Source: Candidatus Sericytochromatia bacterium
Lineage (GTDB): Bacteria > Cyanobacteriota > Sericytochromatia > UBA7694
Assembly (NCBI GenBank): GCA_963797915.1
Contig: CAWCRG010000017.1
Span: 299,074-363,073 of the forward strand
Direction of reading: 5' to 3'
Length of the DNA stretch: 64,000 nt
Positions 5,463 through 54,073 of this stretch are shown piece after piece. A model generated the notes under the pieces. The model had not been told where the DNA came from and made no database searches. It was given only the letters and a program-made list of their open reading frames with translations. Each line of letters begins with the position of its first letter. The stretch's first letter is position 1. The translations under genes were made by a program, and so were the position numbers.

Positions 5463-6515
5463 ATGAACGCTGAACCTGTTTCTGAACCCGTTAGCCACAA
5501 ACACTTTTGGTATATTGCTTGCCAGTCTCACGAGCTGGGAGAGCAAAAGCCGATTCAACGCACGATTCTCGACGAGTGGGTTGTGCTTTTTCGCGATGAA
5601 GAGGGGCAGGCCGTGGCGCTGCAAGACCGTTGCCCGCACCGAAACTTTAAATTGTCTGAGGGATATTTGCAGCAAGGTCAGCTTCAGTGCGCTTACCACG
5701 GCTGGGTGTTTGACGGCCAGGGGCAAGTCATCGCGATTCCTTCGGAGAGTCATGACTTTAAACCCCGTAAAACCCGCTGTGCTAAATCTTTTGAAGTCCT
5801 TGAACAAGATGACTTTATCTACGTGCGCCTGGCCCGCCACCCGGAAATGGACGCGCCCCCCTTTGTCATGCCCCATTACAAAGAAAAAGGCTATAAAACG
5901 GTACGCCTGTTTAATGTCTTTGAAAATGACGTGACCAATTGTGCCGAAAACTACGTCGATGTTCCCCATACCGTCTTTGTGCACGATAAAATTTTTCGGG
6001 TCAGTCGCGACGAAAAAGTAGAGGCCACGGTGACCCGTAAAGCCGGCTCTGTTTATATTGACTACCGAGATGAAACCGATAATATGGGCTGGTTTTCGTT
6101 TTTTTTAAATCCTAAAAAACAACCCATTGTCCACAAAGACGCTTTTCATAGCCCCAATGTCACGAGTGTCGAATATATTTTTTCTCCGGGCAAAAGTTTT
6201 TACATTAGCTCTCACTGCACACCGGTCAACGATCGCTTAACCCACGTCTATACTGACTTGACCTATCAATTTGGTCCCCTGTTTAATTGGGCCGCCGGCC
6301 CGATTGTTCGCTATCAGGGCCAAAGTGTGATTGACCAGGATATCAAAGTTCTCAATACCCAGATGGAGGTGATTCAAAAGTATGGGGTAAAGTTTAGCCA
6401 TTCTAACGCAGATATTGTTCATATTCTGATTGAATCGCTCCGCCACGCCATTGATAAAGGCCAGAACCCGTTGACCCTGAGCGAGCAAACCCATGACTTC
6501 CGTTTCTGGATTTAG
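5463..6515 (+). CDS. Rieske [2Fe-2S] non-heme iron oxygenase (second, distinct family member)
   Basis: Rieske motif CPHRNFKL…CAYHGW, 350 aa, immediately downstream of the ferredoxin. Confidence 0.8.
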   Translation: MNAEPVSEPVSHKHFWYIACQSHELGEQKPIQRTILDEWVVLFRDEEGQAVALQDRCPHRNFKLSEGYLQQGQLQCAYHGWVFDGQGQVIAIPSESHDFKPRKTRCAKSFEVLEQDDFIYVRLARHPEMDAPPFVMPHYKEKGYKTVRLFNVFENDVTNCAENYVDVPHTVFVHDKIFRVSRDEKVEATVTRKAGSVYIDYRDETDNMGWFSFFLNPKKQPIVHKDAFHSPNVTSVEYIFSPGKSFYISSHCTPVNDRLTHVYTDLTYQFGPLFNWAAGPIVRYQGQSVIDQDIKVLNTQMEVIQKYGVKFSHSNADIVHILIESLRHAIDKGQNPLTLSEQTHDFRFWI

Positions 6516-23258: not shown

Positions 23259-23738
23259 ATGGCACTCGTTCTTAATTTAATTATTTTTCTGGGACTCCTG
23301 GCCATTGGCTACTTTTTTGGACAGCAAGCAGAAAAAAAACACTATCTCAGTATTAACGCCCGTGAAAAAGAATACCGCGCCCTGCCTTTGATTAATCTCA
23401 AAAATCCTGATTTTTTAGAGCAAGATGTAGAATTAGCGGTACTGGTCACCGGCAATATGGTGGTGGCCGTGGATTATTTTAAAGTCTTTGTGGCGGCCTT
23501 GCAAAATCTTTTTGGGGGCCATGTTACGCAGTACGAGCCCCTTGTGGATAGAGCCCGCCGGGAGGCGACGTTACGTATGCAGGAAGAAGCGCTGCGTCAC
23601 GGGGCCGACTTGGTTATGAATGTGCGTTTAGATACCAGCTTTTTGGGCGATATGCACAAACGCAAATCGGGTGTGGGCAGTATTGAGTCGATTGCTTATG
23701 GCACCGCCATTCGCTACAAAGCCAAGCAGCTGTCTTAA
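23259..23738 (+). CDS. Membrane-anchored YbjQ/UPF0145-like paralog
   Basis: N-terminal TM helix followed by a YbjQ-like domain (GGHVTQYEPLVDRARREA… AYGTAIR). Confidence 0.6.
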   Translation: MALVLNLIIFLGLLAIGYFFGQQAEKKHYLSINAREKEYRALPLINLKNPDFLEQDVELAVLVTGNMVVAVDYFKVFVAALQNLFGGHVTQYEPLVDRARREATLRMQEEALRHGADLVMNVRLDTSFLGDMHKRKSGVGSIESIAYGTAIRYKAKQLS

Positions 23739-24567
23739 TGCAGTACGTTCCGACACCCCTTCCCGAAGAAAATGTGAATGTCTCCAGGCGCTCGCCGCTT
23801 TGGGATTTGACCACTCTATTGGGTGGTGTGTTATTGATTTTGCTTTTGGTCTACTGGCTGCTTGGTTTTGCGGTGGATTATTATGTGCCGCGTCTTTCCA
23901 TTGAAAGAGAATCCCAGCTGGGGCAGTCTTTTTCAACGGCTTTTGAGCATGAGCTTACGGCGGTTCAGGCTCGAAAACAGGCCTACTTACAAAACCTAAT
24001 GAACGCTCTCGTCAAAGAAAAATACGGGAACACGCCGCATTTGGATTATCGTATTCATCTCAATCCAGAGCCCGAGTCCAATGCTTTTGCTTTTCCCGGG
24101 GGGCACATCGTGGTCATGGAGGGCCTGGTGGATCAGGCCAGTTCTGAAAATGAGCTGGTTTTTGTATTGGGCCATGAAATGGGACATCTGCATCATCGTC
24201 ACAATTTGCGTGCCATGGGGAGAAGCTTGATCTTCTCTATCATGACAGAAGCTGTTTTGGGGGGACCAGCGGCATTAGCAAAAATGTATCCAGCTTTACG
24301 CAGGGCTTGCAATATGGTTTTTCTCGGGCCCAGGAGCTAGAGGCTGACCTCACGGGGATTGATGCGAGTTATGCCCATTATCATCATGTGGGGGGGGCGC
24401 TAGATTTTCTGACGCGCCATCAAAAGGAAGCGGGCTTTGCCGGTTCTCAACTCGGACAGTATTTCGCCTCTCATCCCCATCCTGAGGGCCGCATTGAGCG
24501 ATTAGAAGCGCAGTTTGCCCAAAACCAGTGGACGTTAAAACCCATCAAACCCCTGCCCAATTTTTAG
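23738..24567 (+). CDS. M48-family zinc metallopeptidase, reading frame interrupted near 24290-24305
   Basis: HEMGHLHHRH (HExxH) lies in ORF 23738..24340. The downstream FSRAQELEAD motif typical of M48 lies in ORF 24307..24567 in another frame. A single frameshift joins them. Confidence 0.6.
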
Positions 24568-40798: not shown

Positions 40799-43304
40799 AT
40801 GTCAGATCAATCCAGAGAGCGGGATCTTGTATTGGCCCCCAATGAGTATGCCTTTATTTCGGATCAAACCAAAGGCAATATTAATGTGTATGTGGGCCCC
40901 TACAAAACCAGTTTGGCCAATACAGATCAGCCGGTGTTTTTTGATGAGCAGAGCAAACGCTTTGATCGCTGTGGCTTAGAGCAGGCCACGCGGGTTTTTG
41001 CCACCGCCCCTGAAGGATGGTATATCACCCTTAAAAACCCTGCCGGTGACCAAATGCAGCCTAAAAATGGCACGGTTAATAATTTGCCCGATCTGCAGGT
41101 GGGGCATAAGATTAATTTACCCGGACCGGTTTCTTTTGGCTTATGGCCCGGACAAATGGTGAGGGTACTTAAGGGGCATCACCTGCGCTCTAACCAGTAT
41201 TTACTGGTGCGCGTCTATGACGAAGCCTCAGCCCGCAGTAACTGGACACGGGCCGTGATGAAGCTTCAGGGCAATGTGCCCGAAGAGGGGCTGAATCTGA
41301 AAAGCGCTGCTGAAGAAACGTTAAATCTTGGACAGGAAATGGTGATTCGAGGCACCGAGGTTTCTTTTTATATTCCCCCGACCGGTATTGAAGTTGTTAC
41401 TGACAGGCAGGGCGGGTTGGTGAGAGAAGCGGTAACGTTGGAGCGACTTGAGTACTGCATTTTATTGGATGAAGACGGCAATAAACGCTATATTCAGGGG
41501 CCCGATGTGGTCTTTCCTGAGCCCACAGAACGTTTTGTGGAGCGGCAAGTGAGCGGTGTGCTCTGTAAAAAGTTTCGGGCTGTCGAACTCAATGAAAATA
41601 GCGGCATTTACGTGAAGGTGATTGCGCCCTATACGTCTTCTGACGGCGATAAAGTAACCCAGCATGGCGTGGGCGACGAACTGTTTATTACGGGTAAAGA
41701 TCAGATGATTTATTTTCCGCGCCCGGAACATGCGGTGATTAAGTATGGTGCCCAGGATATTCACTATGCGGTGGCCATTCCTGCGGGCGAAGGGCGTTAT
41801 GTGATGGAGCGTAACACCGGGCAGATTAGACTGGTAAAAGGGCCCCACCATGCTGCTGCCTGACCCCCGGCGAGAGGTCATGATACGGCGCGTACTGACC
41901 ACGCCCCAGGTGCGTCTGTGGTTTCCGGGCAATGCCGAAGCGATGGAGTATAATCACCAATTGCAGGAACTCTTAGCCGATGAAAAGGGAGCTTCGGTAT
42001 TGCCCCTTTCTGTACCCCTTGCGCCGACGGGTGGGCCTGCGGATGCAAAATCTCGCAGCGCTGCCAAATCCTCAAAAAGAGAAGTTACTCCCGCGTTGGC
42101 GGGTGAGGACTTTCATCGCAATACGCAGTATACGCCACCTCGGACCATTACCTTAAACACCAAGTATGATGGGGCGGTCGCGGTGTCCATCTGGACTGGC
42201 TACGCGGTGCTCGTGGTAAGTAAAACCGGAGAGCGTAAAGTCGTGGTGGGTCCACAAACCTACCTGCTGGCGTACGATGAAGCCCTGGAGCCCATGGCTT
42301 TATCTACGGGATCTCCCAAAAGCGAGTCTCAATTGCTTAAAACCGTTTACTTGCGGGTGTTGCACAATAAAATCTCCGATAAAATTCGTGTGGAAACGCG
42401 CGATCTGTGCGAGGTAGAGATTCAGCTTTCTTATCGGGTGAACTTTGAGGGCGATTCCCAATACTGGTTTAATGTGGAGAACTATGTCAAGTTTTTGACG
42501 GAGCATATGCGTTCTCGCATTCGCAACGCGGTCAAGCAGGTGGGTGTGGAAGCTTTTTATAGTCAGGCGGCTGATATCTTGCGCGATACCGTGCTGGGAG
42601 TCAGTGACGGACAACGGACCGGCTGCACCTTTGCTGAAAACGGCATGCGGGTGTATGACGTCGAGGTGCTCAATGTCACGCTGGTGGACCAAAGCGTGGA
42701 GCAATTGTTGATTGCCGCGCAACGGCAAGGGGTTGAGCAGACCTTGCAACTCAACGCCGAACGGCGCAAGCTGGACTTTGTGCAGGCTGAAGAGGTCGTC
42801 AAGCGAGAAATGTCTGAAGCCCGCATTCTCACGGAGACTCAGCATCATGATATAGAGCTTGAACGCTTACACCGTCAGCAGGCCTTACAATTGCAGCAGT
42901 TAAAAAGCCAAAGTGAAGCAGAACAAACCCGCCTGCTCGGCGAATTGGCCAATCAAGAGCAAATGAGTGCGGTGCATGAGGCTGAGTTAATGCGAGAGCG
43001 GGTGCGTTTAGAGCAGGAGTTGGCCATGGCTCACGAACGGACGCAGCAGCGTCTGATGCTGATGCAGGGTGAGGTAGAGGCGATGGCCCGCAAAGCAGAA
43101 GCCATTTCACCTGACCTGATTGCTGCTTTACAGGCTTTTGGCGATAAAGCGCTGGCGGAGCGCATGGCGGCATCGATGGGGCCACTCGCCATTCTCGGCG
43201 GCAATAGCGTGGCCGATGTCTTGTCCCAGCTGCTGGGCGGTACCCAGCTCGAACACCTTGTGCGCAAGGCGATGCCCCTCATGGGCCATATTACTGAAGA
43301 CTGA
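40799..43304 (+). CDS. Major vault protein (MVP) homolog, single gene with apparent frameshift near 41845-41865
   Basis: The N-terminus (LVLAPNEYAFISDQTKGNINVYVGPYKTSLANTDQPVFF) parallels the first MVP repeat of eukaryotic MVP ([38 protein letters not shown]). The C-terminal ORF parallels the MVP shoulder/cap-helix region (…VDQSVEQLLIAAQRQGVEQTLQLNAERRKL…). Combined length is about 835 aa. Confidence 0.6.
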
Positions 43305-43390: not shown

Positions 43391-44325
43391 ATGACCGACG
43401 TCTCTCCCATTATCTCAATTACGAATTTATCCAAGGTCTACGCCTCAGGCTTTCAAGCCCTTAAAGCCGTGGACCTGGATATTCATCGCGGGGAGATTTT
43501 TGCGCTCCTCGGTCCCAATGGTGCGGGTAAAACCACCCTGATTAGTATTATTTGCGGCATTGTAAATGCTTCTACCGGTGAAGTGCTGGCCGATGGCCAC
43601 TCGGTATTTAAAGACTATCGACAAGCGCGTAGCAAGATCGGCCTGGTACCCCAGGAGCTTACCAACGATATGTTTGAAACGGTGTGGAATACGGTAAAGT
43701 TTAGCCGTGGGCTCTTTGGTAAAGCGCCCAATCCGGCCTTGCTCGAAGATATTTTGCGCCGTTTGTCACTGTGGGACAAAAAAGATCAGCAAATTCGCGC
43801 GCTTTGGGGGGCATGAAGCGACGGGTGATGATCGCCAAGGCGCTGTCTCATGAGCCCATGATTTTGTTTCTGGATGAACCCACTGCGGGTGTTGACGTGG
43901 ATTTGCGTAAAGATATGTGGGAAATGGTGCATCAGTTACGCAAAACCGGTGTCACGATTATTTTAACCACTCACTATATGAAGAAGCTCAGGAAATGGCT
44001 GACCGTATTGGTTTTATTCGCAGCGGTGAAGTCTTTTTAGTGGAAGAAGAAAAAGGCGCTGATGCAAAAATTAGGCAAAAAGCAATTGACGTTGCAATTG
44101 GCTGAACCCCTGTCAGAGATTCCAGCGACTTTACAAAGCCTGCCCCTTACGCTCTCCGAAAATCATATGCAGTTGGTATATACCTTTGATGCCCAAACGC
44201 AAAAAAAGGGCATTGCCTCGCTTTTACGGCAATTGTCCGATGAAGGCATTGATTTTCAAGATCTGTACACCAGTGAAAGCTCCCTCGAAGATATTTTTGT
44301 TAAATTGATTGGAACCTCAGTATGA
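43391..44325 (+). CDS. ABC transporter ATP-binding protein, broken into four frames (three frameshifts)
   Basis: Walker A (GPNGAGKTT), signature (LSGG-like at a G6 run), Walker B (ILFLDEPT) and H-loop (TTHY) are spread over ORFs 43358..43816, 43771..44040, 43917..44105 and 44062..44325. Confidence 0.6.
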
Positions 44326-45224: not shown

Positions 45225-46112
45225 TTAGAGGCTGCGTCGCATGAGTCCATTTAATTGTATAGAGTAATGGGCTTTAACATCCCGAGTCCCGATAAGGGCT
45301 AACCCTATATTTTCTAAGTCTACGGTGACTTGTAATTTGTCACTGGTTTGAACGGTTTTCCAAGCTTGTTTCATGCCTTCCGACCAAAGGATATCGTCAA
45401 AAATAAGTAGGCTATTGGTGTGTAAATAGGGAAGAAATTGTTCAAAGTAAGCCAGGGTGGCAGTATGGTCATGGTGACCATCAATAAATGCGAAATCAAT
45501 GGGCTGGTGGTTCTCCAGCAATGCAGGCAGACAATCCTGAAAACGTCCTTCAATCACGGTGGCATAATCAGAGAGCCCCAGATTTTCGAGGGTGGAACGG
45601 CTTTGCTTAGCCAATACGGGAGAGCCTTCCAGGGTGAAAACTTGGCCTTGTTGTGTTTGTTTTAAAGCGCTTGCCTGATATGCCGCTGAAATGCCGACAC
45701 AGCTTCCCAGTTCGATACTGATCCGGGGCTCAAATGTTTTGGTCAGGTGGTATAGTAAGCTGGCCCAAAATGCAGGTTTGCTCGCGCGAGCCAAAGTGGC
45801 CAGTGATATTTCTGTTTTTATGCCCTGATACATTTCTTCTGTTGTGCGTTGCTTTTCGGGGGAGCCTGCCCCATAATCGATGCTTTCAACGATTTGTGTG
45901 CTTTGGTGAAGTTGTTGGCGATGGGATTCAATGGCCCGTATTGCCAGGGTTTCTTTTGGAGATAAGCGCTGAAAAAAGGTGTCTTCAATGGCTTTTGCCA
46001 GGGCCTGTGTCTGAGGGTTTTTGCTGTGTTTCATTTCTTGTAGAGCGGGTGGAAGCTGAGTTAATGCCACTTGGCGAAGTGCTTTTTTTAATACCTGTTT
46101 TAGTTTGCTCAT
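45225..46112 (-). CDS. Class I SAM-dependent methyltransferase (O-methyltransferase family 3-like)
   Basis: Motif I-like IELGSCVGISAAY and FIDGHHDH are characteristic of CmcI/family-3 O-MTases. Confidence 0.65.
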   Translation of the reverse strand: MSKLKQVLKKALRQVALTQLPPALQEMKHSKNPQTQALAKAIEDTFFQRLSPKETLAIRAIESHRQQLHQSTQIVESIDYGAGSPEKQRTTEEMYQGIKTEISLATLARASKPAFWASLLYHLTKTFEPRISIELGSCVGISAAYQASALKQTQQGQVFTLEGSPVLAKQSRSTLENLGLSDYATVIEGRFQDCLPALLENHQPIDFAFIDGHHDHTATLAYFEQFLPYLHTNSLLIFDDILWSEGMKQAWKTVQTSDKLQVTVDLENIGLALIGTRDVKAHYSIQLNGLMRRSL

Positions 46113-46186: not shown

Positions 46187-46345
46187 GGCTTTGATCGACT
46201 TCTCTTAAAACGGCTAAAATCTTAAATGTGATGTCCTACAATGTTGATATCGATGATTTTTAGCTGACCGCGCATGTCTTCGTCGAGTACGGTACTAAAG
46301 ATAACGTTGGCGTCGGGGTTAACTGTGTTTTCAATGGCTTCATCA
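46187..46345 (-). pseudogene. 3' fragment of a diverged ftsZ-like paralog (last ~40 codons plus downstream sequence)
   Basis: About 75% nucleotide identity to 50768..50930. It translates to …DEDMRGQLKIIDINIVGHHI*, compared with …[20 protein letters not shown] in the intact gene. Confidence 0.55.
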
Positions 46346-46609
46346 GCTTTGGATAAACCCACTGCGGGTGTTGACGTGGATCTGCGTAAAGATATGTGAG
46401 AAATGGTGTGTCAGCTGTGTAAAACTGGCGTCACGATTATTTTAACCACTCACTATATCGAAGAAGCCCAGAAAATGGCTGACCATATTGGTTTTATTCG
46501 CAGCGGTGAAGTCTTTTTAGTCGAAGAGAAAAAGGCGCTGCTGACCTTTTGGGGGGAAGCTTTTACGGTGTGGCTGATTTTTAAAACCGGCTACAAAACT
46601 AAGAACTAG
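46346..46609 (+). pseudogene. Remnant of the ABC transporter operon (ATPase fragment fused to permease 3' tail)
   Basis: 46346-46545 matches 43870-44060 (…[35 protein letters not shown]…). 46546-46609 matches the permease tail at 44862-44880 and 45040-45082 ([10 protein letters not shown]). Confidence 0.6.
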
Positions 46610-46638: not shown

Positions 46639-47757
46639 CTAGTTTTGATCCCGAGCGATGCGCGACACTGAGATGTAGGCATTGGGTTTTGACTGGGCCT
46701 GCGCGCCTTTGAAGTTCTGACGGTGTTTAAAAACCGATTCAAACTCCGCAAAAGACACGCTGCTGGAATCATTGGGATTGTAGGGATCCGCCAATAGCAG
46801 GTTATTGTCTTTATCGATGCCTGTTAGCACAACATAATGGCCCGTGTTACCTATTTGATTGGGGTTATTGTCCATAAACTGAGTGAGCAGAATGACTGAG
46901 TTGCCCTGATTCAGCTCGTTTCGCATGCGTTCCAGCATATCGGTGGCGTTACGCATGCCGTCTTTTTTTTCTCGGTGCACTTCTGCTTCAAGCTTACCTT
47001 CCGAGAGTTTCTCTAGACTTTTAGCCATCGGCTCAGGATCGATGGCTCCTGAATTGCTCACACCCATCAGCTTTCGCATTTCGCCGATGCTCTCAATATT
47101 TCCGGCCAGGCCCTGTTCTTTTAGCACCATTAAGGTACTGGTGGGACCACAAGAGGAGCCTGCTTGTTTGTGTAGTCGCGCCTGTTCACCGCTCAGCCTT
47201 CCTGCCTTGGCGGCATCTTTATCCCGGTTATAGCTGCCTTCGCCGTATTTTTTATCGTAATCAGCAAATTGTTTTGTATGCCAATCTTTGTTTGCACCCG
47301 GCTTATAAAAGTCGACGCCCTTTGGATTAAACTTTCCCTGTGCGCGGGCCTGGGCTTCGTTTCGCTCCTGTGGCTCAAGCATCTGCAATGTAGACTGGCT
47401 TAGTTCTCGGGCCAGGGCCTGGTTTTTAACCTGACCTAACGCCTGACTCACTTGTGCATATTCTTTAGGCGAAAGCTTATGGTCTGAAAAAAGCTTTCCC
47501 GTGCGGGTCTTGTCTTCAATGCCTTGAATAAATCCAGCCAGCAGCTGTTTGTCTTCTGGGCTTAAGTTTTCCTGAGCAAGCAATTGCTGTAAATTTTTGC
47601 CCTCGTCTTTTTGCAAGTGTCTGTCCTGAGTTGCCTGCTGAAAGCTTGAGCTTAAACGGGGAGGAATGGTTGTCATGGGTGTTGACGATCTTTCTGAAGA
47701 TATTAAGGGTACGTAGGAATAAACAAAAAAGCGACTTGTCTCAGCTTGAAGATTCAA
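46639..47757 (-). CDS. Peptidase C39-like (papain-fold cysteine peptidase) domain protein
   Basis: The C-terminal domain has a candidate catalytic Cys (QAGSSCGPTSTLMVL) and His (GHYVVLTGID). The N-terminal ~190 aa are charged, low-complexity and coiled-coil-like. Confidence 0.5.
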   Translation of the reverse strand: MNLQAETSRFFVYSYVPLISSERSSTPMTTIPPRLSSSFQQATQDRHLQKDEGKNLQQLLAQENLSPEDKQLLAGFIQGIEDKTRTGKLFSDHKLSPKEYAQVSQALGQVKNQALARELSQSTLQMLEPQERNEAQARAQGKFNPKGVDFYKPGANKDWHTKQFADYDKKYGEGSYNRDKDAAKAGRLSGEQARLHKQAGSSCGPTSTLMVLKEQGLAGNIESIGEMRKLMGVSNSGAIDPEPMAKSLEKLSEGKLEAEVHREKKDGMRNATDMLERMRNELNQGNSVILLTQFMDNNPNQIGNTGHYVVLTGIDKDNNLLLADPYNPNDSSSVSFAEFESVFKHRQNFKGAQAQSKPNAYISVSRIARDQN

Positions 47758-47802
47758 GTCAAAACAAGCCGCTCAATCTACTGATTAAATAACGACGGGT
47801 TA

Positions 47803-48718
47803 CTAATCTATAATTTTTTTGCCGGGATAGATAGTGGCTCCTGGGGGAGGTGTTCCCTCAACGCCCATATTTCCTTTGTCGCCCATAGGAAAGTTAGGCT
47901 TTTGTCCTGGACTGGGCTTCGTTCCGATGGGTGCCTGGCCGGGTTTACCCGTGGGGAAATTGGGTTTATTACCCAGTTCAGGCTTGGGTTTTTGTCCGTC
48001 GTGAATGTGAGCGCCTTGAGGGGGCTTGCCTTCGGTACCCATTTGAGGTTGCGGCTTTTGTCCCTGGCTAATTTGTGCGTCTTTGGGAGGCTTGCCTTCG
48101 GTACCCATTTGAGGTTGCGGCTTTTGTCCCTGTGAATTTGTGCGTCTTGGGAGGTTTACCTTCGGTACCCATTTGAGGTTGTGGCTTTGTGGTAATTTGT
48201 GCGTCTTTGGGAGGCTTGCCTTCGGTACCCATTTGAGGTTGCGGCTTTTGTCCCTGGCTAATTTGTGCGTCTTTGGGAGGCTTGCCTTCGGTACCCATTT
48301 GAGGTTGCGGCTTTTGTCCCTGGCTAATTTGTGCGTCTTTGGGAGGCTTGCCTTCGGTACCCATTTGAGGTTGCGGCTTTTGTCCCTGGCTAATTTGTGC
48401 GTCTTTGGGAGGCTTGCCTTCGGTACCCATTTGAGGTTGCGGCTTTTGTCCCTGGCTAATTTGTGCGTCTTTGGGAGGTTTACCTTCGGTACCCATTGAA
48501 GGCTTGTCGGGAAATTTTTGAGGGGTTTTAAGACTATCACTTTTCACGGGGGTAGATTGAAGGGTGTCTTTCTGGTCAATGGCTGGCTTCTGTGCTTGAG
48601 TGATGTCCTCTTTTTTAATGTCTTTGTCTTTAACTTCTCCCTTTTTCCCGATAGGGAAGGCGTTTGCTGCGCTATTTACTGCTGAAGACAGAGGGCCGGT
48701 ACTCATACTCATACTCAT
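47803..48718 (-). CDS. Lys/Pro/Gln-rich tandem-repeat protein (22-aa repeats MGTEGKPPKDAQISQGQKPQPQ), frame broken within the repeat array
   Basis: ORFs 48068..48718 and 47803..48540 overlap in two frames. The frame changes at a 64-bp variant repeat copy (48100-48163). No signal peptide. Confidence 0.5.
48034..48520. repeat. 66-bp tandem repeat array (about 7.5 copies; one 64-bp and one 60-bp variant)
   Basis: The anchor ggtaccc recurs at 48034, 48100, 48164, 48224, 48290, 48356, 48422 and 48488. Confidence 0.85.
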
Positions 48719-49236
48719 GACATCCTTTGGATTTTTAATGGTTTTAATAAAATAATTTTGTAGGCACTTATCTACGAAGACTTTTTGAGAATAAATCTAA
48801 AGACAAACGTGAAAAGTAACGATTTAAAAAACAATATGCTTCTATTTTAACTTTTTTTTCGTGAACTCTTGCGGAATTTAATCAATTATTAAGATATTTT
48901 AATCAAGCTTAGCTTTCTGCTGACGGTATTTTCTTGAAGGTCTCTTTGGGGCGTGTCCTATCGTTTACACGACGACATTTCAATTTAGAATTCTATTTTG
49001 CATCCAGCACATGCTCTAAGAGGCCGTCCCATTGCCAGGACTGCATGGGAGTATACTCAGCCCCAAGACCAATGGCACCGTTGAATATACCGGAGTTGTT
49101 GACTTCATTGCGTCTGTTGACCGTAACTTCTGTGTCACCTTGATCATCATGGCGCTGGTTCACAAAAACATTTTTATGCCTTTTGACCTTATCATTCTAA
49201 ACCACTTTGCAAACAAGGCCGATTTTTTCTTGACAA

Positions 49237-50802: not shown

Positions 50803-51744
50803 TTAAAGGTGACGGCCCACAATGGCGATGACGGTCACTTTCACCTGATCGCGCATGTCTTCGTCGAGTACGGTGCCAAAAATAACGTTGGCATCGGGGT
50901 TGACCGTATTGTAAATGACTTCGGCGGCTTCGTTAATTTCATGGAGCGAAACATCCTGGCCGCTGGTGATGTTAAAGACCACACCGGTGGCGCCGTCAAT
51001 GGAGTATTCCAGCAGTGGGTTCTCGATGGCTTTTTTGACAGCGTCTACAGCGGGATTTTCCACGTCCATAGAGCTGACGCCCACACCCATGACACCCACA
51101 CCGGCGTCGCTCATAATGGCGCGCACATCAGCAAAATCGACGTTGATCAGGCCGGGGATGTTAATAATGTCAGAAATGCCCTGAATGGCGAGCAATAAAA
51201 CATTGTCGACTTCTTGAAACGCATTTTTGACGGCCAGGCCGCCTTTCATGCTCTGTAATAAGCGATCGTTAGATACCACAATCAGGGTATCTACAGCGTT
51301 CAGCATGCGTTGAATGCCAGCATCGGCCTGTTCTTTACGGCGCTTGCCTTCAAACATAAATGGGCGGGTCACAACGCCTACGGTCAGTGCGCCCATGGAC
51401 TTTGCCATTTCAGCGAGAGCCGGGCCTGCGCCGGTACCGGTACCACCACCCATACCGCAGGTGACAAAAACCATGTCGGTGTCTTGCAAGTAGTGGCTGA
51501 GTTCTTCGCGACTTTCTTCGAGGGCCTTCATGCCCACTTCGGGGTTTCCGCCGGCGCCGAGGCCGCGGGTGCTTTTGCCGCCAATTTGAATGCGTTCCTG
51601 AGCGTCGACCATTGAAAGGGCCTGGGCATCGGTGTTGACAGCAATAAACTCGACCCCTTCAAAGGCGGCAGCGCGCATATGATTAATCGTATTTCCGCCG
51701 CTGCCGCCAACGCCGAAAACTTTAATGCTAACCAGTGGTGTCAT
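50803..51744 (-). CDS. FtsZ paralog comprising only the core GTPase and C-terminal domains (no linker or C-terminal tail)
   Basis: FGVGGSGGN, tubulin signature [12 protein letters not shown] and T7 loop NVDFADV. 313 aa ending …VIAIVGRHL, with 85 bp to the next gene. Confidence 0.8.
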
Positions 51745-51842: not shown

Positions 51843-53030
51843 TTAACGGGGTTGCTTGGTGTCCAATGCACAGTTCTCACCATTCCACTCGATATCCAGA
51901 GTGCTGGCAGAAAGCAGGTCAGTACCTGCTTTTTTGGCTCGCTGCAGGGTGCGAAAAAGCATGCCAAACTGTTGCCAGAAGGGGCCAGGGTCTTGCCATT
52001 TCATGAGGGGATCCCGCGCTCGCCAGAGGTCCTTTAAAATGCGGGGGGTGTGTAAGAGATCTTGTGGAATGGCGTAGCCTATCATGGCAATACTCAGGGC
52101 CACCGGTTGTCGAGCCAGGGGACGCACCGTGCGGCTTGCGGTTTGCGGCAAAAAGGCCCGTGGTAGTTCATCTTCTTTTTCAAACAAAAAAGTGCCGGTG
52201 GTGGTGCGTGGGTTGCACTCAATGGCGTAATACAGGCCCTTATACAAAATAAAGTCAAAGGAAATTTGACCCGTATAGCCAAAATAGTGCACAATGGCGC
52301 GCACAATATGCTCAATTTCGGGAATATCGACGGATTCAAAGTAAATGGTGGCTCCAGGCCCCGCAGTGTAGACGGTGGGATACACGCTGTGGGCCGTCAG
52401 CTCGCCGTTACGCGCCACGCTATAAGAGCAAAACTGAGGGCCGTCCAAATACTCTTGTAAGACCCAGGGGCTTTGGGGTGTGGGCTGAATATTTTGGTAC
52501 ACCTTATGCATGGGGGCATTAATATACACCGCACTGGCAAAACGAGAAAACTCGGCTTTGAGTACATATTGGCCCCATTCCGGTAAACGGGTTTTGAGTT
52601 GGTCTCGGTTACCAATGCGCTCGGTGGCGGGAGCCGGTAGCTTGAGCCGTTGCAAGAGTTGGTTGAAGCGGTATTTGCTGTGCAGTTCATGGAGACAGGC
52701 CATGTCGGCGGTAAACACTTCACAGCCTTTGCCCGTGCCTTCTAAGGTTTCGCGATGCTGGGCAATATAAAAGGTTTCTTCGCAGGTGGGAATGAGGAGA
52801 TCAATCTCGCGATCCACAATAATTTCTTGTAAAGCCCGAATATAGGCGGCGGTGTGTTGGCGCGGGGCGGGTACGGTAAAGTTTTTAGCGCAGGCCCGCG
52901 AAGCCCCGGCGAGGTTAGGCTGAAGGCTTTCGGCCACATCACAGCGGTGTCCCGCTTCGGCAAAGCGACGAATCAACGCTAAAGTGGCCGGACTGCGCCC
53001 GCCGGTAAACAAAATCTTGTGTGACGGCAT
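51843..53030 (-). CDS. ATP-grasp domain protein (carboxylate-amine ligase-like)
   Basis: 395 aa with ATP-grasp-like central and C-terminal segments (…LQEYLDGPQFCSYSV… ISFDFIL…ECNPR). Confidence 0.5.
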   Translation of the reverse strand: MPSHKILFTGGRSPATLALIRRFAEAGHRCDVAESLQPNLAGASRACAKNFTVPAPRQHTAAYIRALQEIIVDREIDLLIPTCEETFYIAQHRETLEGTGKGCEVFTADMACLHELHSKYRFNQLLQRLKLPAPATERIGNRDQLKTRLPEWGQYVLKAEFSRFASAVYINAPMHKVYQNIQPTPQSPWVLQEYLDGPQFCSYSVARNGELTAHSVYPTVYTAGPGATIYFESVDIPEIEHIVRAIVHYFGYTGQISFDFILYKGLYYAIECNPRTTTGTFLFEKEDELPRAFLPQTASRTVRPLARQPVALSIAMIGYAIPQDLLHTPRILKDLWRARDPLMKWQDPGPFWQQFGMLFRTLQRAKKAGTDLLSASTLDIEWNGENCALDTKQPR

Positions 53031-54073
53031 CAGTACACCAGCACCAGCCCACCCAGCGAGAGCCCGGCACCGGTGCCCAATAAACAGACCCGATCCCCAC
53101 GGGCAATGCGGTTTTGGCTGATGGCGTCATAGAGCGCCATGGGAATGGAGGCGGCAATGCAATTGCCGTGGGTGGCCAGATGATCAATATATTGGTCTTC
53201 GCGCCAGCGAAACAAACGGCGGGCGGTCTCAATGGCTCCTTTGCTGGCCTGATGGGGCACAATAAACTCACAGTCTCTGAGTCCAAAGCCTAAAGGTTTA
53301 AACAGCGTTTTTAAGAACGGCCGCAATTTTTTAAAGGCCATGCCAAGCACTTTGGGCCCATCCATGTGAAAGGTAAAGTCTGTGGGGTTGGCGCCGGCGG
53401 TGGCGATGGCGTTGGGGTGGAGGACGTTACCGCCCCCTTTGACGTAGGTGTACATTGCGCCGTCGCCATAGGTTTCTAAGCGACTCTGCAACAGCGCGCT
53501 GGATTCGCCCTCGGGAGCGATACCCACAATGGCCGCTGCTGCCCCATCGCCGAGCAGGGTGGCACTCTCTTTTTCTGCTGGATTTAACGACCGGGAGGAA
53601 ATTTCGGCAGAGACAATGGCAATGCGCCGATAACGACCCGAAGCCAGAAAGCTGGCCGCCACTTCTAAAGCGGCAATAAAGCTCAGGCAGGTGGCATCGA
53701 CGGTAAAGCTGGGAGTCCCCGAGTTTCCTTTGCCCATGGCCCGTTGAATCAAGCAGGAGGTGTCTGGAATGGGGTAGTCATAAGAGCCAGAGGCGTTAAT
53801 AATCAGGTCGAGTTCTTCGTAAGCTAAACCCGCATTTTGAAGGGCTTCGGTCAGGGCCTGGGCACCGAGATCGGCGTTGCTTTCGTATTCAGCCCAGTGG
53901 CGAACTTCAACCCCCGACTTTTGTAAAATCCAGCCGGGCTTTAGGCCCATCTGGGTCTCCAGGGTCGAAGAATGCACGGTGCGTGGCGGCAGGTACTTAC
54001 CCATGCCAAGAATCTTGAGGGGAATGGACGGTTGCTCGTGGGGGGGCTGTATGCTCATCGTACGCTCAGTCAT
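53030..54073 (-). CDS. 3-oxoacyl-ACP synthase III (FabH-like KAS III)
   Basis: Catalytic Cys (DATCLSFIAAL), His (VPHQAS) and Asn (HGNCIAASIP) triad at the canonical spacing. Confidence 0.75.
   Translation of the reverse strand: MTERTMSIQPPHEQPSIPLKILGMGKYLPPRTVHSSTLETQMGLKPGWILQKSGVEVRHWAEYESNADLGAQALTEALQNAGLAYEELDLIINASGSYDYPIPDTSCLIQRAMGKGNSGTPSFTVDATCLSFIAALEVAASFLASGRYRRIAIVSAEISSRSLNPAEKESATLLGDGAAAAIVGIAPEGESSALLQSRLETYGDGAMYTYVKGGGNVLHPNAIATAGANPTDFTFHMDGPKVLGMAFKKLRPFLKTLFKPLGFGLRDCEFIVPHQASKGAIETARRLFRWREDQYIDHLATHGNCIAASIPMALYDAISQNRIARGDRVCLLGTGAGLSLGGLVLVY

Follow-up and report, generated by a model that had tools for sequence, protein, structure and literature searches.

A tandem-repeat gene beside a C39-like peptidase gene in Candidatus Sericytochromatia: a lineage-restricted pair with a frame break that is probably artefactual

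A 64,000-nucleotide stretch of a Candidatus Sericytochromatia genome (contig CAWCRG010000017.1, positions 299,074 to 363,073; the window) carries, on its minus strand, a gene for a tandem-repeat protein directly followed by a gene for a C39-like cysteine peptidase. Comparison with related loci shows that the two genes form a lineage-restricted two-gene cassette of Sericytochromatia-like bacteria, and the frame break which splits the repeat gene is probably a local sequencing or assembly error and not a property of its array. Our overall explanation, in which the cassette is real, the break artefactual and the repeat protein a substrate or decoy of the peptidase, is offered with confidence a little short of even. 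The peptidase is of a known kind and its partner gene is unexplained; the locus does not amount to a new kind of system.

The repeat gene occupies 47803..48718 on the minus strand, starts at ATG 48718 with a Shine-Dalgarno-like AAGGA motif 7-11 nt upstream, and encodes about 305 amino acids (aa) once its frame is repaired; the array begins after 74 codons. Tandem Repeats Finder located it at 48023-48497 (period 66, 7.3 copies, 93% matches, score 845), and splitting the minus-strand sequence at each unit start, ATGGGTACCGAAGG, gave eight head-to-tail units at 48496-47977 with lengths of 66, 66, 66, 66, 60, 64, 66 and 66 bp. Both agree with an earlier sequence-only reading of this DNA, which had described eight units of a 66-bp type, one of them 64 bp and one 60 bp long. 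The units are as follows.

48496-48431, minus strand: array unit 1, 66 bp
48430-48365, minus strand: array unit 2, 66 bp
48364-48299, minus strand: array unit 3, 66 bp
48298-48233, minus strand: array unit 4, 66 bp
48232-48173, minus strand: array unit 5, 60 bp, 6 nt lost in frame
48172-48109, minus strand: array unit 6, 64 bp, two 1-nt deletions by unit alignment
48108-48043, minus strand: array unit 7, 66 bp
48042-47977, minus strand: array unit 8, 66 bp, diverged 'QGAHIHDGQKPKPE' type (…PPQGAHIHDGQKPKPE)

Units 1-4 and 7 encode MGTEGKPPKDAQISQGQKPQPQ, and each unit encodes the motif E-G-x-P-P-x-[GD]-A-x-I-x-x-G-[QK]-K. The part PP-x-[GD]A-x-I-x-x-G-[QK]K is found in every unit and in the conserved C-terminus of the protein (...PPPGATIYPGKKIID), which is itself the last unit of array type. 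A less strict version, [FY]-x-[ILV]-G-[KQ]K, occurs at around residue 20. In the repeat protein, one and the same short linear motif thus recurs as an array. The protein opens with a conserved stretch of about 72 residues, and its units, variable in number, measure about 20-23 residues each. Two unit types were distinguished, A (…KDAQIS[DQ]GQKPQ) and B (…QGAHIHDGQKPKP), and the array here consists of seven A-type units and then one B-type unit. In addition, the start codon of the gene belongs to an (ATGAGT)3 micro-repeat (48701-48718, minus strand), which is present in 1-3 copies in relatives (MSTG…, MSMSTG…, MSMSMSTG…) and provides several in-frame ATG starts.

Over the N-terminal 72 codons, the ratio of nonsynonymous to synonymous substitution rates (dN/dS) is 0.16-0.26, by which the repeat gene is a genuine gene under purifying selection; the possibility that it is a non-genic open reading frame (ORF) was ruled out by this dN/dS of about 0.2, the conserved termini and the Shine-Dalgarno-like motif. 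By database comparison it is an orphan family: a collection of 5.8 billion proteins contains just 5 clusters of it, and Pfam, NCBIfam and PADLOC gave zero matches. The protein is rich in P (16.7%), K (14.1%), Q (13.8%) and G (12.5%), with a grand average of hydropathicity of -1.31 and an isoelectric point of about 9.6. AlphaFold2 gave the L011 orthologue zero secondary structure, with a predicted local distance difference test score (pLDDT) of 55 and a predicted template-modelling score of 0.11, and the repeat protein is therefore predicted to be intrinsically disordered.

Relatives with the repeat gene fall into six lineages, all Sericytochromatia-like, and each has one intact ORF (intact single-ORF orthologues at L003, L005, L007, L011 and L015). 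The orthologues keep the N-terminus (MSMSTGPL…FPDKPSMG) and the C-terminus ([IL]YPGKK[IV]ID), while unit number and unit length vary as follows.

L011 repeat gene: 1 unit
L015 repeat gene (P0015): 2 units
L007 repeat gene: 4 units of 22-23 aa each
P0003-lineage repeat gene: 1, 3, 4, 5 or 6 units of 20 aa each in different assemblies, which are unreliable lower bounds given that the assemblies are gapped

The earlier suggestion that copy number could vary thus holds among relatives, with 1, 2, 4, 3-6 or more, and 8 units. Separate lineages amplified different unit types independently of one another, and only ever by whole codons (unit lengths of 60, 66 and 69 bp across all lineages), and the units are homogenised within each genome. 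A 100-N gap interrupts the array in three independent short-read scaffolds, L001 (~5540-5640), L002 and L004, which indicates that the real arrays exceed what the reads resolve; some of the low unit numbers may be assembly collapses. In these respects the gene resembles bacterial in-frame variable tandem-repeat proteins, whose units are homogenised and whose copy number differs between lineages and, as it appears here, between samples. It differs from them in that its unit changes are frame-neutral and its product lacks both a signal peptide and an anchor.

The partner gene was compared across 16 distinct loci, L001-L016 (L017 is the L009 contig again). Close relatives carry, on one strand, FtsZ (313 aa), a variable interval, the repeat gene and the peptidase gene, followed on the opposite strand by an ABC-2 permease, an ATP-binding cassette (ABC) ATPase and a vault-like protein. 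In every lineage having the repeat gene, it lies directly 5' of the peptidase gene on the same strand, and in L015 it still adjoins the peptidase although the upstream neighbour differs. The spacing between the two genes is conserved, and so is a terminator-like hairpin with a U-run that lies between them (47721..47775, minus strand). The hairpin has a minimum free energy of -27.9 kcal/mol (z -4.26), and 0/200 shuffles were as stable; it is kept in L003, L007 and L011, with compensatory changes at 7/19 pairs across four lineages, and was found in L015 too. A simple consensus scan had overlooked it because of its internal loop, and an Rfam scan around both genes gave zero matches at E <= 0.1.

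The peptidase ORF extends over 47757..46639 on the minus strand (372 aa), while the real start is ATG 47676, as in all homologues, giving a stand-alone gene at 46639..47676 that encodes 345 aa. A profile search, which the earlier reading had proposed, matched Pfam Peptidase_C39_2 (PF13529) with 44.4 bits (cut-off 24, E 3.3e-11) over profile positions 8-143/143. PF03412 reached 22.0 bits against a cut-off of 22, a partial match covering profile positions 84-122/133 alone, in the His region. The PF13529 profile, an AlphaFold2 model and a 45-member family alignment all uphold the papain-type C39-like fold with catalytic Cys and His that had been recognised from the sequence. The active-site residues, numbered per the 372-aa ORF, are listed below.

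47271-47269, minus strand: Gln163, nearly invariant in the 45-member alignment
47151-47149, minus strand: Cys203 (QAGSSCGP), invariant in the alignment
46839-46837, minus strand: His307 (GHYVV), invariant in the alignment
46788-46786, minus strand: Asp324, nearly invariant in the alignment

The Gly-Pro after the catalytic Cys is likewise invariant; 42/45 aligned family members match PF13529, and PG_binding_1 is present in 3/45. The AlphaFold2 model (pLDDT 76) consists of an N-terminal helix bundle, a disordered linker and the papain-like domain. The N-terminus, which had been taken for a charged coiled coil, is predicted instead to form a compact bundle of six short helices (residues 34-139, pLDDT 80-94), and in distant relatives the N-terminal domain contains a canonical EF-hand-like 'DxNxDGK(V/I)xxxE' loop. 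Ten homologues were found among 5.8 billion proteins, and 86 relatives at E <= 1e-3 among 1.84 billion representative proteins; where the genome encoding a relative is named, it is a 'Candidatus Sericytochromatia' or Cyanobacteriota metagenome-assembled genome. No NCBIfam name was obtained for the peptidase. On profile and alignment evidence, it belongs to a small Peptidase_C39_2 subfamily marked by its helical N-terminal domain. In agreement with the sequence-only reading that neither protein has a signal peptide, no hydrophobic segment was found in the repeat protein or the peptidase by a hydropathy check only (maximum 15-residue Kyte-Doolittle mean <=0.74).

As deposited, the repeat gene is read in two overlapping frames, as had been stated: an ORF at 48718..48068 (216 aa) and an ORF at 48540..47803 (245 aa), which are one gene. 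Alignment of the units traced the break to two deletions 16 nt apart in unit 6, AAA->AA at 48148-48147 and CAC(C)AG->CACAG at 48132|48131, which produce a net -2 frameshift and split the gene. The proposal that the array itself is frame-unstable did not survive: unit lengths are all multiples of three, so unit gain or loss cannot shift the frame, the relatives are intact, and the break consists of two point deletions in homopolymers. It was further weakened by six 1-nt indels which, relative to three or four relatives, interrupt neighbouring conserved genes at 39.4-44.4 kb and, within a 9-kb stretch that includes the array, point to local sequence error.

39487: indel in a 333-aa gene, G5->G4
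41840: indel in the vault-like gene, +1
43803, 43979 and 44049: indels in the ABC ATPase gene
44375: indel in the ABC-2 permease gene

Both array deletions lie in homopolymers of 2-3 nt, and several of the other indels are also homopolymer-length changes, which are typical of read errors. Against the same relatives, coding sequence at 50.8-55.6 kb has zero indels, and the other ORFs of the window look intact; at 49.2-50.7 kb, ORF lengths compared with L007 are 200 vs 190 aa for a TetR gene and 271 aa in both for a short-chain dehydrogenase/reductase gene. Three genes, carrying five of the six neighbouring indels, were compared with L001 after frame repair.

Vault-like gene: protein identity 92.7%, dN/dS 0.039
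ABC ATPase gene: protein identity 94.5%, dN/dS 0.020
ABC-2 permease gene: protein identity 99.2%, dN/dS 0.003

Because genes so constrained show no other decay, independent inactivation of all of them is unlikely, and an error-prone assembly stretch is the simplest account. Moreover, an ABC ATPase pseudogene fragment (46350-46543) is free of both indels that the main copy carries at 43871-44064, and the ABC ATPase is split in the low-coverage assembly L004 (coverage ~4) too. Noisy or low-coverage reads might have bridged this repeat- and duplication-rich region and caused the errors, and the organism probably has an intact ORF of about 305 aa. A chimeric assembly behind the high ABC identity was ruled out by nucleotide identity to L001 of about 82% throughout. 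To find the array of this strain in an independent copy, metagenome contigs were scanned for its exact pattern, with zero matches, and a protein-guided scan recovered a distant L009-type locus only.

Observations that weigh against a sequencing or assembly error include the deletion at 43979, which is outside any homopolymer, and the clustering of the indels at 39.4-48.2 kb instead of a contig-wide spread. A real frameshift, which we consider rather unlikely, would mean that the repeat, vault-like, ABC ATPase, ABC-2 and 333-aa genes were all inactivated very recently in a damaged segment. The stretch with the indels does hold true structural scars, at 46.2-46.6 kb, and an inserted methyltransferase gene, and error-prone repair tied to the duplication and insertion behind the scars could be the cause; 6/8 indels, counting those in the array, are -1 deletions, and the window is free of N. 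On this reading, the only product of the repeat gene would be a truncated protein of 214-216 aa without the conserved C-terminal unit. However, the three broken genes that were compared show no relaxation (dN/dS 0.003-0.04), at least five independent inactivations in them would all need to be extremely recent, and the repeat gene is intact in all relatives. It is barely credible that both frames are used deliberately, at a contingency locus or through programmed frameshifting: the overlap of the two ORFs and nothing else speaks for this, while units are whole codons in all lineages, all relatives have single ORFs, two separate shifts would be required in runs of only 2-3 nt, and zero Rfam elements surround the genes. 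Repeat-driven or programmed frame instability was accordingly ruled out by the whole-codon units and intact relatives, and the repeat array is not a contingency locus. If the break is an error, as we favor, the public annotation of the contig, in which the product (P0012) is cut down to 214 aa and ends in a spurious C-terminus, needs to be read in that light, and some 9 kb with single-base indels is an unsafe basis for inferring pseudogenes, phase variation or gene loss.

That the two products cooperate, with the repeat protein as a multivalent substrate, pseudo-substrate or decoy of the peptidase, is possible but doubtful, and the idea is drawn by analogy with fold relatives. The best Foldseek matches of the peptidase in the PDB are Cpe1 (9L5U) and StbD-CT (8SSM/8SSK), with E 3e-4 to 2e-3 and template-modelling scores of 0.66-0.67, and weak sequence matches fall on the same chains (E 0.011). 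In the peptidase-containing ABC transporters (PCAT), ComA and LahT, a hydrophobic P4 precedes the GG cleavage site. PMC12136450 and bioRxiv 10.64898/2026.05.07.723447 describe cleavage of GyrB and ParE by Cpe1 and StbD-CT at a Gly-Gly site, within HAG|GK, and cleavage after GG by ComA and LahT. Since the characterised fold relatives bind extended segments and cut at Gly, the repeat protein could plausibly serve as a multivalent substrate or decoy, and the recurrence of hydrophobic-x-x-G-[QK]-K in every unit, in the C-terminus and near residue 20 was counted for this idea. The peptidase might bind an extended repeat segment whose P4 residue is hydrophobic (Ile/Tyr) and whose P1 residue is Gly, with the cut falling at G|[QK]K, while the hairpin might allow high expression of a structural repeat gene and low read-through expression of the peptidase.

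Several findings weigh against such a functional link. Gly-Gly is missing from the repeat units, P0015 has Thr in place of the 'P1' Gly, and the terminator-like hairpin stands between the two genes. At more distant orthologous loci, the peptidase also occurs without the repeat gene: in L012, whose peptidase is 72% identical, it comes straight after FtsZ; in L008 and L014 its upstream neighbour is a paralogous C39-like peptidase and its downstream neighbour RtcB; and in L009 and L010 its neighbours are unrelated. In L008 (7539-9598) and L014 (2-1881), from more distant Sericytochromatia, the two paralogous C39-like peptidase genes stand in tandem and overlap stop to start, with RtcB next. All co-occurrences of the repeat gene and the peptidase may, moreover, stem from a single insertion.

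The same distribution suits a reading in which the two genes are neighbours without any relation, the repeat gene being a young orphan inserted in the variable spot between FtsZ and the peptidase, with its own terminator and its own role, for instance that of a hydrophilic protein, a phase-separating protein or a scaffold that binds another partner; we regard this as about as likely as the functional link, possible but on the unlikely side. The repeat gene is absent from L012 and the more distant loci, has its own Shine-Dalgarno-like motif and terminator-like hairpin, and sits in an interval whose content varies, with two further orphan genes in L007 and one remnant in the window. In addition, its N-terminal part is much nearer to L011 (dS 0.15) than the peptidase relationships predict, and this unexpectedly small dS suggests separate recombination histories of the two genes. 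On the other hand, the repeat gene was seen only next to the peptidase, also in L015 with its different upstream neighbour, and both the spacing and the hairpin are conserved. The remnant in the window (48996-49172, minus strand) is the C-terminal part of a 293-aa orphan gene which is intact in L007 (3850-4731). Over about 60 N-terminal residues, the L007 293-aa protein resembles the N-terminus of the L008 C39 paralogue (E 6e-7), while their C-terminal domains differ. The remnant and the shared N-terminal module suggest that the FtsZ-to-peptidase interval is a variable spot with modular orphan proteins. tblastn searches gave zero matches in phages and one weak Clostridium C39 match in plasmids, and a phage or plasmid origin is unsupported by them.

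A more specific form of the substrate idea, which seems improbable, is that the repeat protein is a polyprotein-like substrate that the cytosolic C39-like peptidase cuts after the unit Gly (…I-x-x-G|[QK]K…). Many Pro/Lys-rich peptides of about 20 residues would then be released, with unit number setting the dose; alternatively, cleavage might leave a disordered tag that ends in an exposed Gly, as in the precursors of ubiquitin, UFM1 or Pup.

The resemblance to Cpe1, an Escherichia coli type VI secretion system (T6SS) effector, and to StbD-CT of the Citrobacter rodentium contact-dependent growth inhibition (CDI) system raises another reading, in which the peptidase is an antibacterial or anti-host toxin delivered by an unrecognised route and the repeat protein a decoy-type immunity factor or co-effector. 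The catalytic residues are the same, these proteins act in the cytosol without a signal peptide, as is predicted from sequence for the peptidase here, and their site, with Gly at P1 and Lys at P2' (HAG|GK), is loosely like the G|[QK]K of the repeat units. According to PMC12136450, Cpi1 confers immunity by competitive substrate-like binding. The ~60-aa N-terminal module shared by the L008 paralogue and the L007 protein recalls polymorphic toxins, and the lack of a signal peptide in the hydropathy check and the variable interval content would also fit. In contrast to Cpe1 and StbD-CT, the peptidase has 345 aa with its own N-terminal domain, and the sequence similarity is marginal. No T6SS or CDI carrier (PAAR, VgrG, Rhs, CdiA) was found in the peptidase, its window neighbours or the 16 related loci. 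No immunity gene was found directly 3' of the peptidase, where a convergent ABC-2 permease (close relatives), RtcB (L008, L014) or unrelated genes (L009, L010) occur. The peptidase therefore fails two defining features of Cpe1/StbD toxins, carrier linkage and a downstream immunity gene. There were also zero matches to defence or toxin families in NCBIfam and PADLOC, and the context is one of housekeeping genes, so that a toxin role, like the effector pairs of host-associated or predatory bacteria which the two proteins had been said to resemble, is distinctly unlikely. It is very improbable that the papain-fold enzyme is a transglutaminase or isopeptidase which would cross-link the Lys/Gln-rich repeat protein in the manner of cornified-envelope or spore-coat substrates, since zero transglutaminase-family matches were found and the profiles match the peptidase C39 type only.

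Among known systems, the peptidase is most simply compared with Peptidase_C39_2 members such as the putative C39-like peptidase 3ERV of Bacillus anthracis, with which it shares the PF13529 score, the papain-like fold, the Gln/Cys/His/Asp residues and a stand-alone architecture; it differs in having a helical N-terminal domain of about 140 residues and no signal peptide or cell-wall-binding domain. Unlike the C39 domains of PCAT or ABC transporter maturation and secretion (AMS) proteins (PCAT1, ComA, LahT; PF03412), it is not fused to an ABC exporter with transmembrane and nucleotide-binding domains, and the ABC-2/ATPase pair beside it is convergent, separate and of another transporter type. 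The neighbouring repeat protein likewise has no Gly-Gly leader, its recurring site being hydrophobic-x-x-G-[QK]-K. As both the transporter fusion and a GG-leader substrate are missing, the peptidase is not a PCAT-type C39. Multi-core ribosomally synthesised and post-translationally modified peptides (RiPPs), such as graspetides and cyanobactins, also have a small gene of near-identical tandem units by a peptidase with a hairpin after it, whereas a recognisable leader and a modifying enzyme are missing here. A graspetide or other multi-core RiPP cluster was ruled out: the nearby ATP-grasp protein matches PRK06849 at 345 bits, with zero matches to peptide-maturase (MvdC/MvdD-type) models, and it is kept in L012, which has no repeat gene.

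The surroundings of the pair are housekeeping in character (chromosomal metabolism and cell division), with FtsZ, β-ketoacyl-ACP synthase III (KAS III), ATP-grasp, GH57 and pyruvate:ferredoxin oxidoreductase subunits (39-56 kb, with Pfam spot checks elsewhere). The relatives have the peptidase gene directly convergent with the ABC-2 gene, unlike the window, where a methyltransferase gene and a rearrangement scar (46187..46608, directly 3' of the peptidase) stand between them.

45225-46112, minus strand: Methyltransf_24 gene, inserted between the ABC-2 gene and the scars
46187-46349, minus strand: FtsZ 3' fragment, 80% identical to the end of the window's own FtsZ
46350-46543, plus strand: ABC ATPase fragment, 90.8% identical to 43871-44064, with an in-frame TGA
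to 46608: scraps of the ABC-2 permease 3' end

The vault-like gene (40799-43304, plus strand, ~834 aa; orthologue at L001 8824-11328) adjoins the ABC-2 transporter, and its product matches Vault_3, MVP_shoulder and Band_7/SPFH; bacterial homologues of the major vault protein have already been described (bioRxiv 10.1101/872010). FtsZ (50803-51744, minus strand) has only 313 aa and ends after FtsZ_C, without a C-terminal linker or conserved tail peptide; it nevertheless passes the TIGR00065 equivalog cut-off (397 bits) and has 99% protein identity to the L001 orthologue. Upstream of FtsZ, the PRK06849-like ATP-grasp gene is paired with KAS III (PRK07204-like) at 51843-54073 on the minus strand, and the pair is kept in relatives including L012. 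Elsewhere in the window, a 200-aa ORF (23738-24340, plus strand) matches Peptidase_M48 at positions 2-98/186 only and may be a truncated or short member. PADLOC gave zero matches for the peptidase, the repeat protein, the vault-like protein, FtsZ and the ATP-grasp protein; with a weak mad2 match on the methyltransferase as the sole exception, an anti-phage defence system is unsupported.

Sericytochromatia are non-photosynthetic relatives of cyanobacteria with almost no experimental biology. If the two proteins do cooperate, the pair would offer a simple example of a C39-type peptidase that stands alone and has a multivalent, disordered partner linked to it genetically, and the independent amplification of different units would show selection on valency. 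If, moreover, the repeat protein were processed as a polyprotein, this would represent a transporter-independent use of a C39-type peptidase and a new tandem-unit peptide factory in a little-studied phylum.

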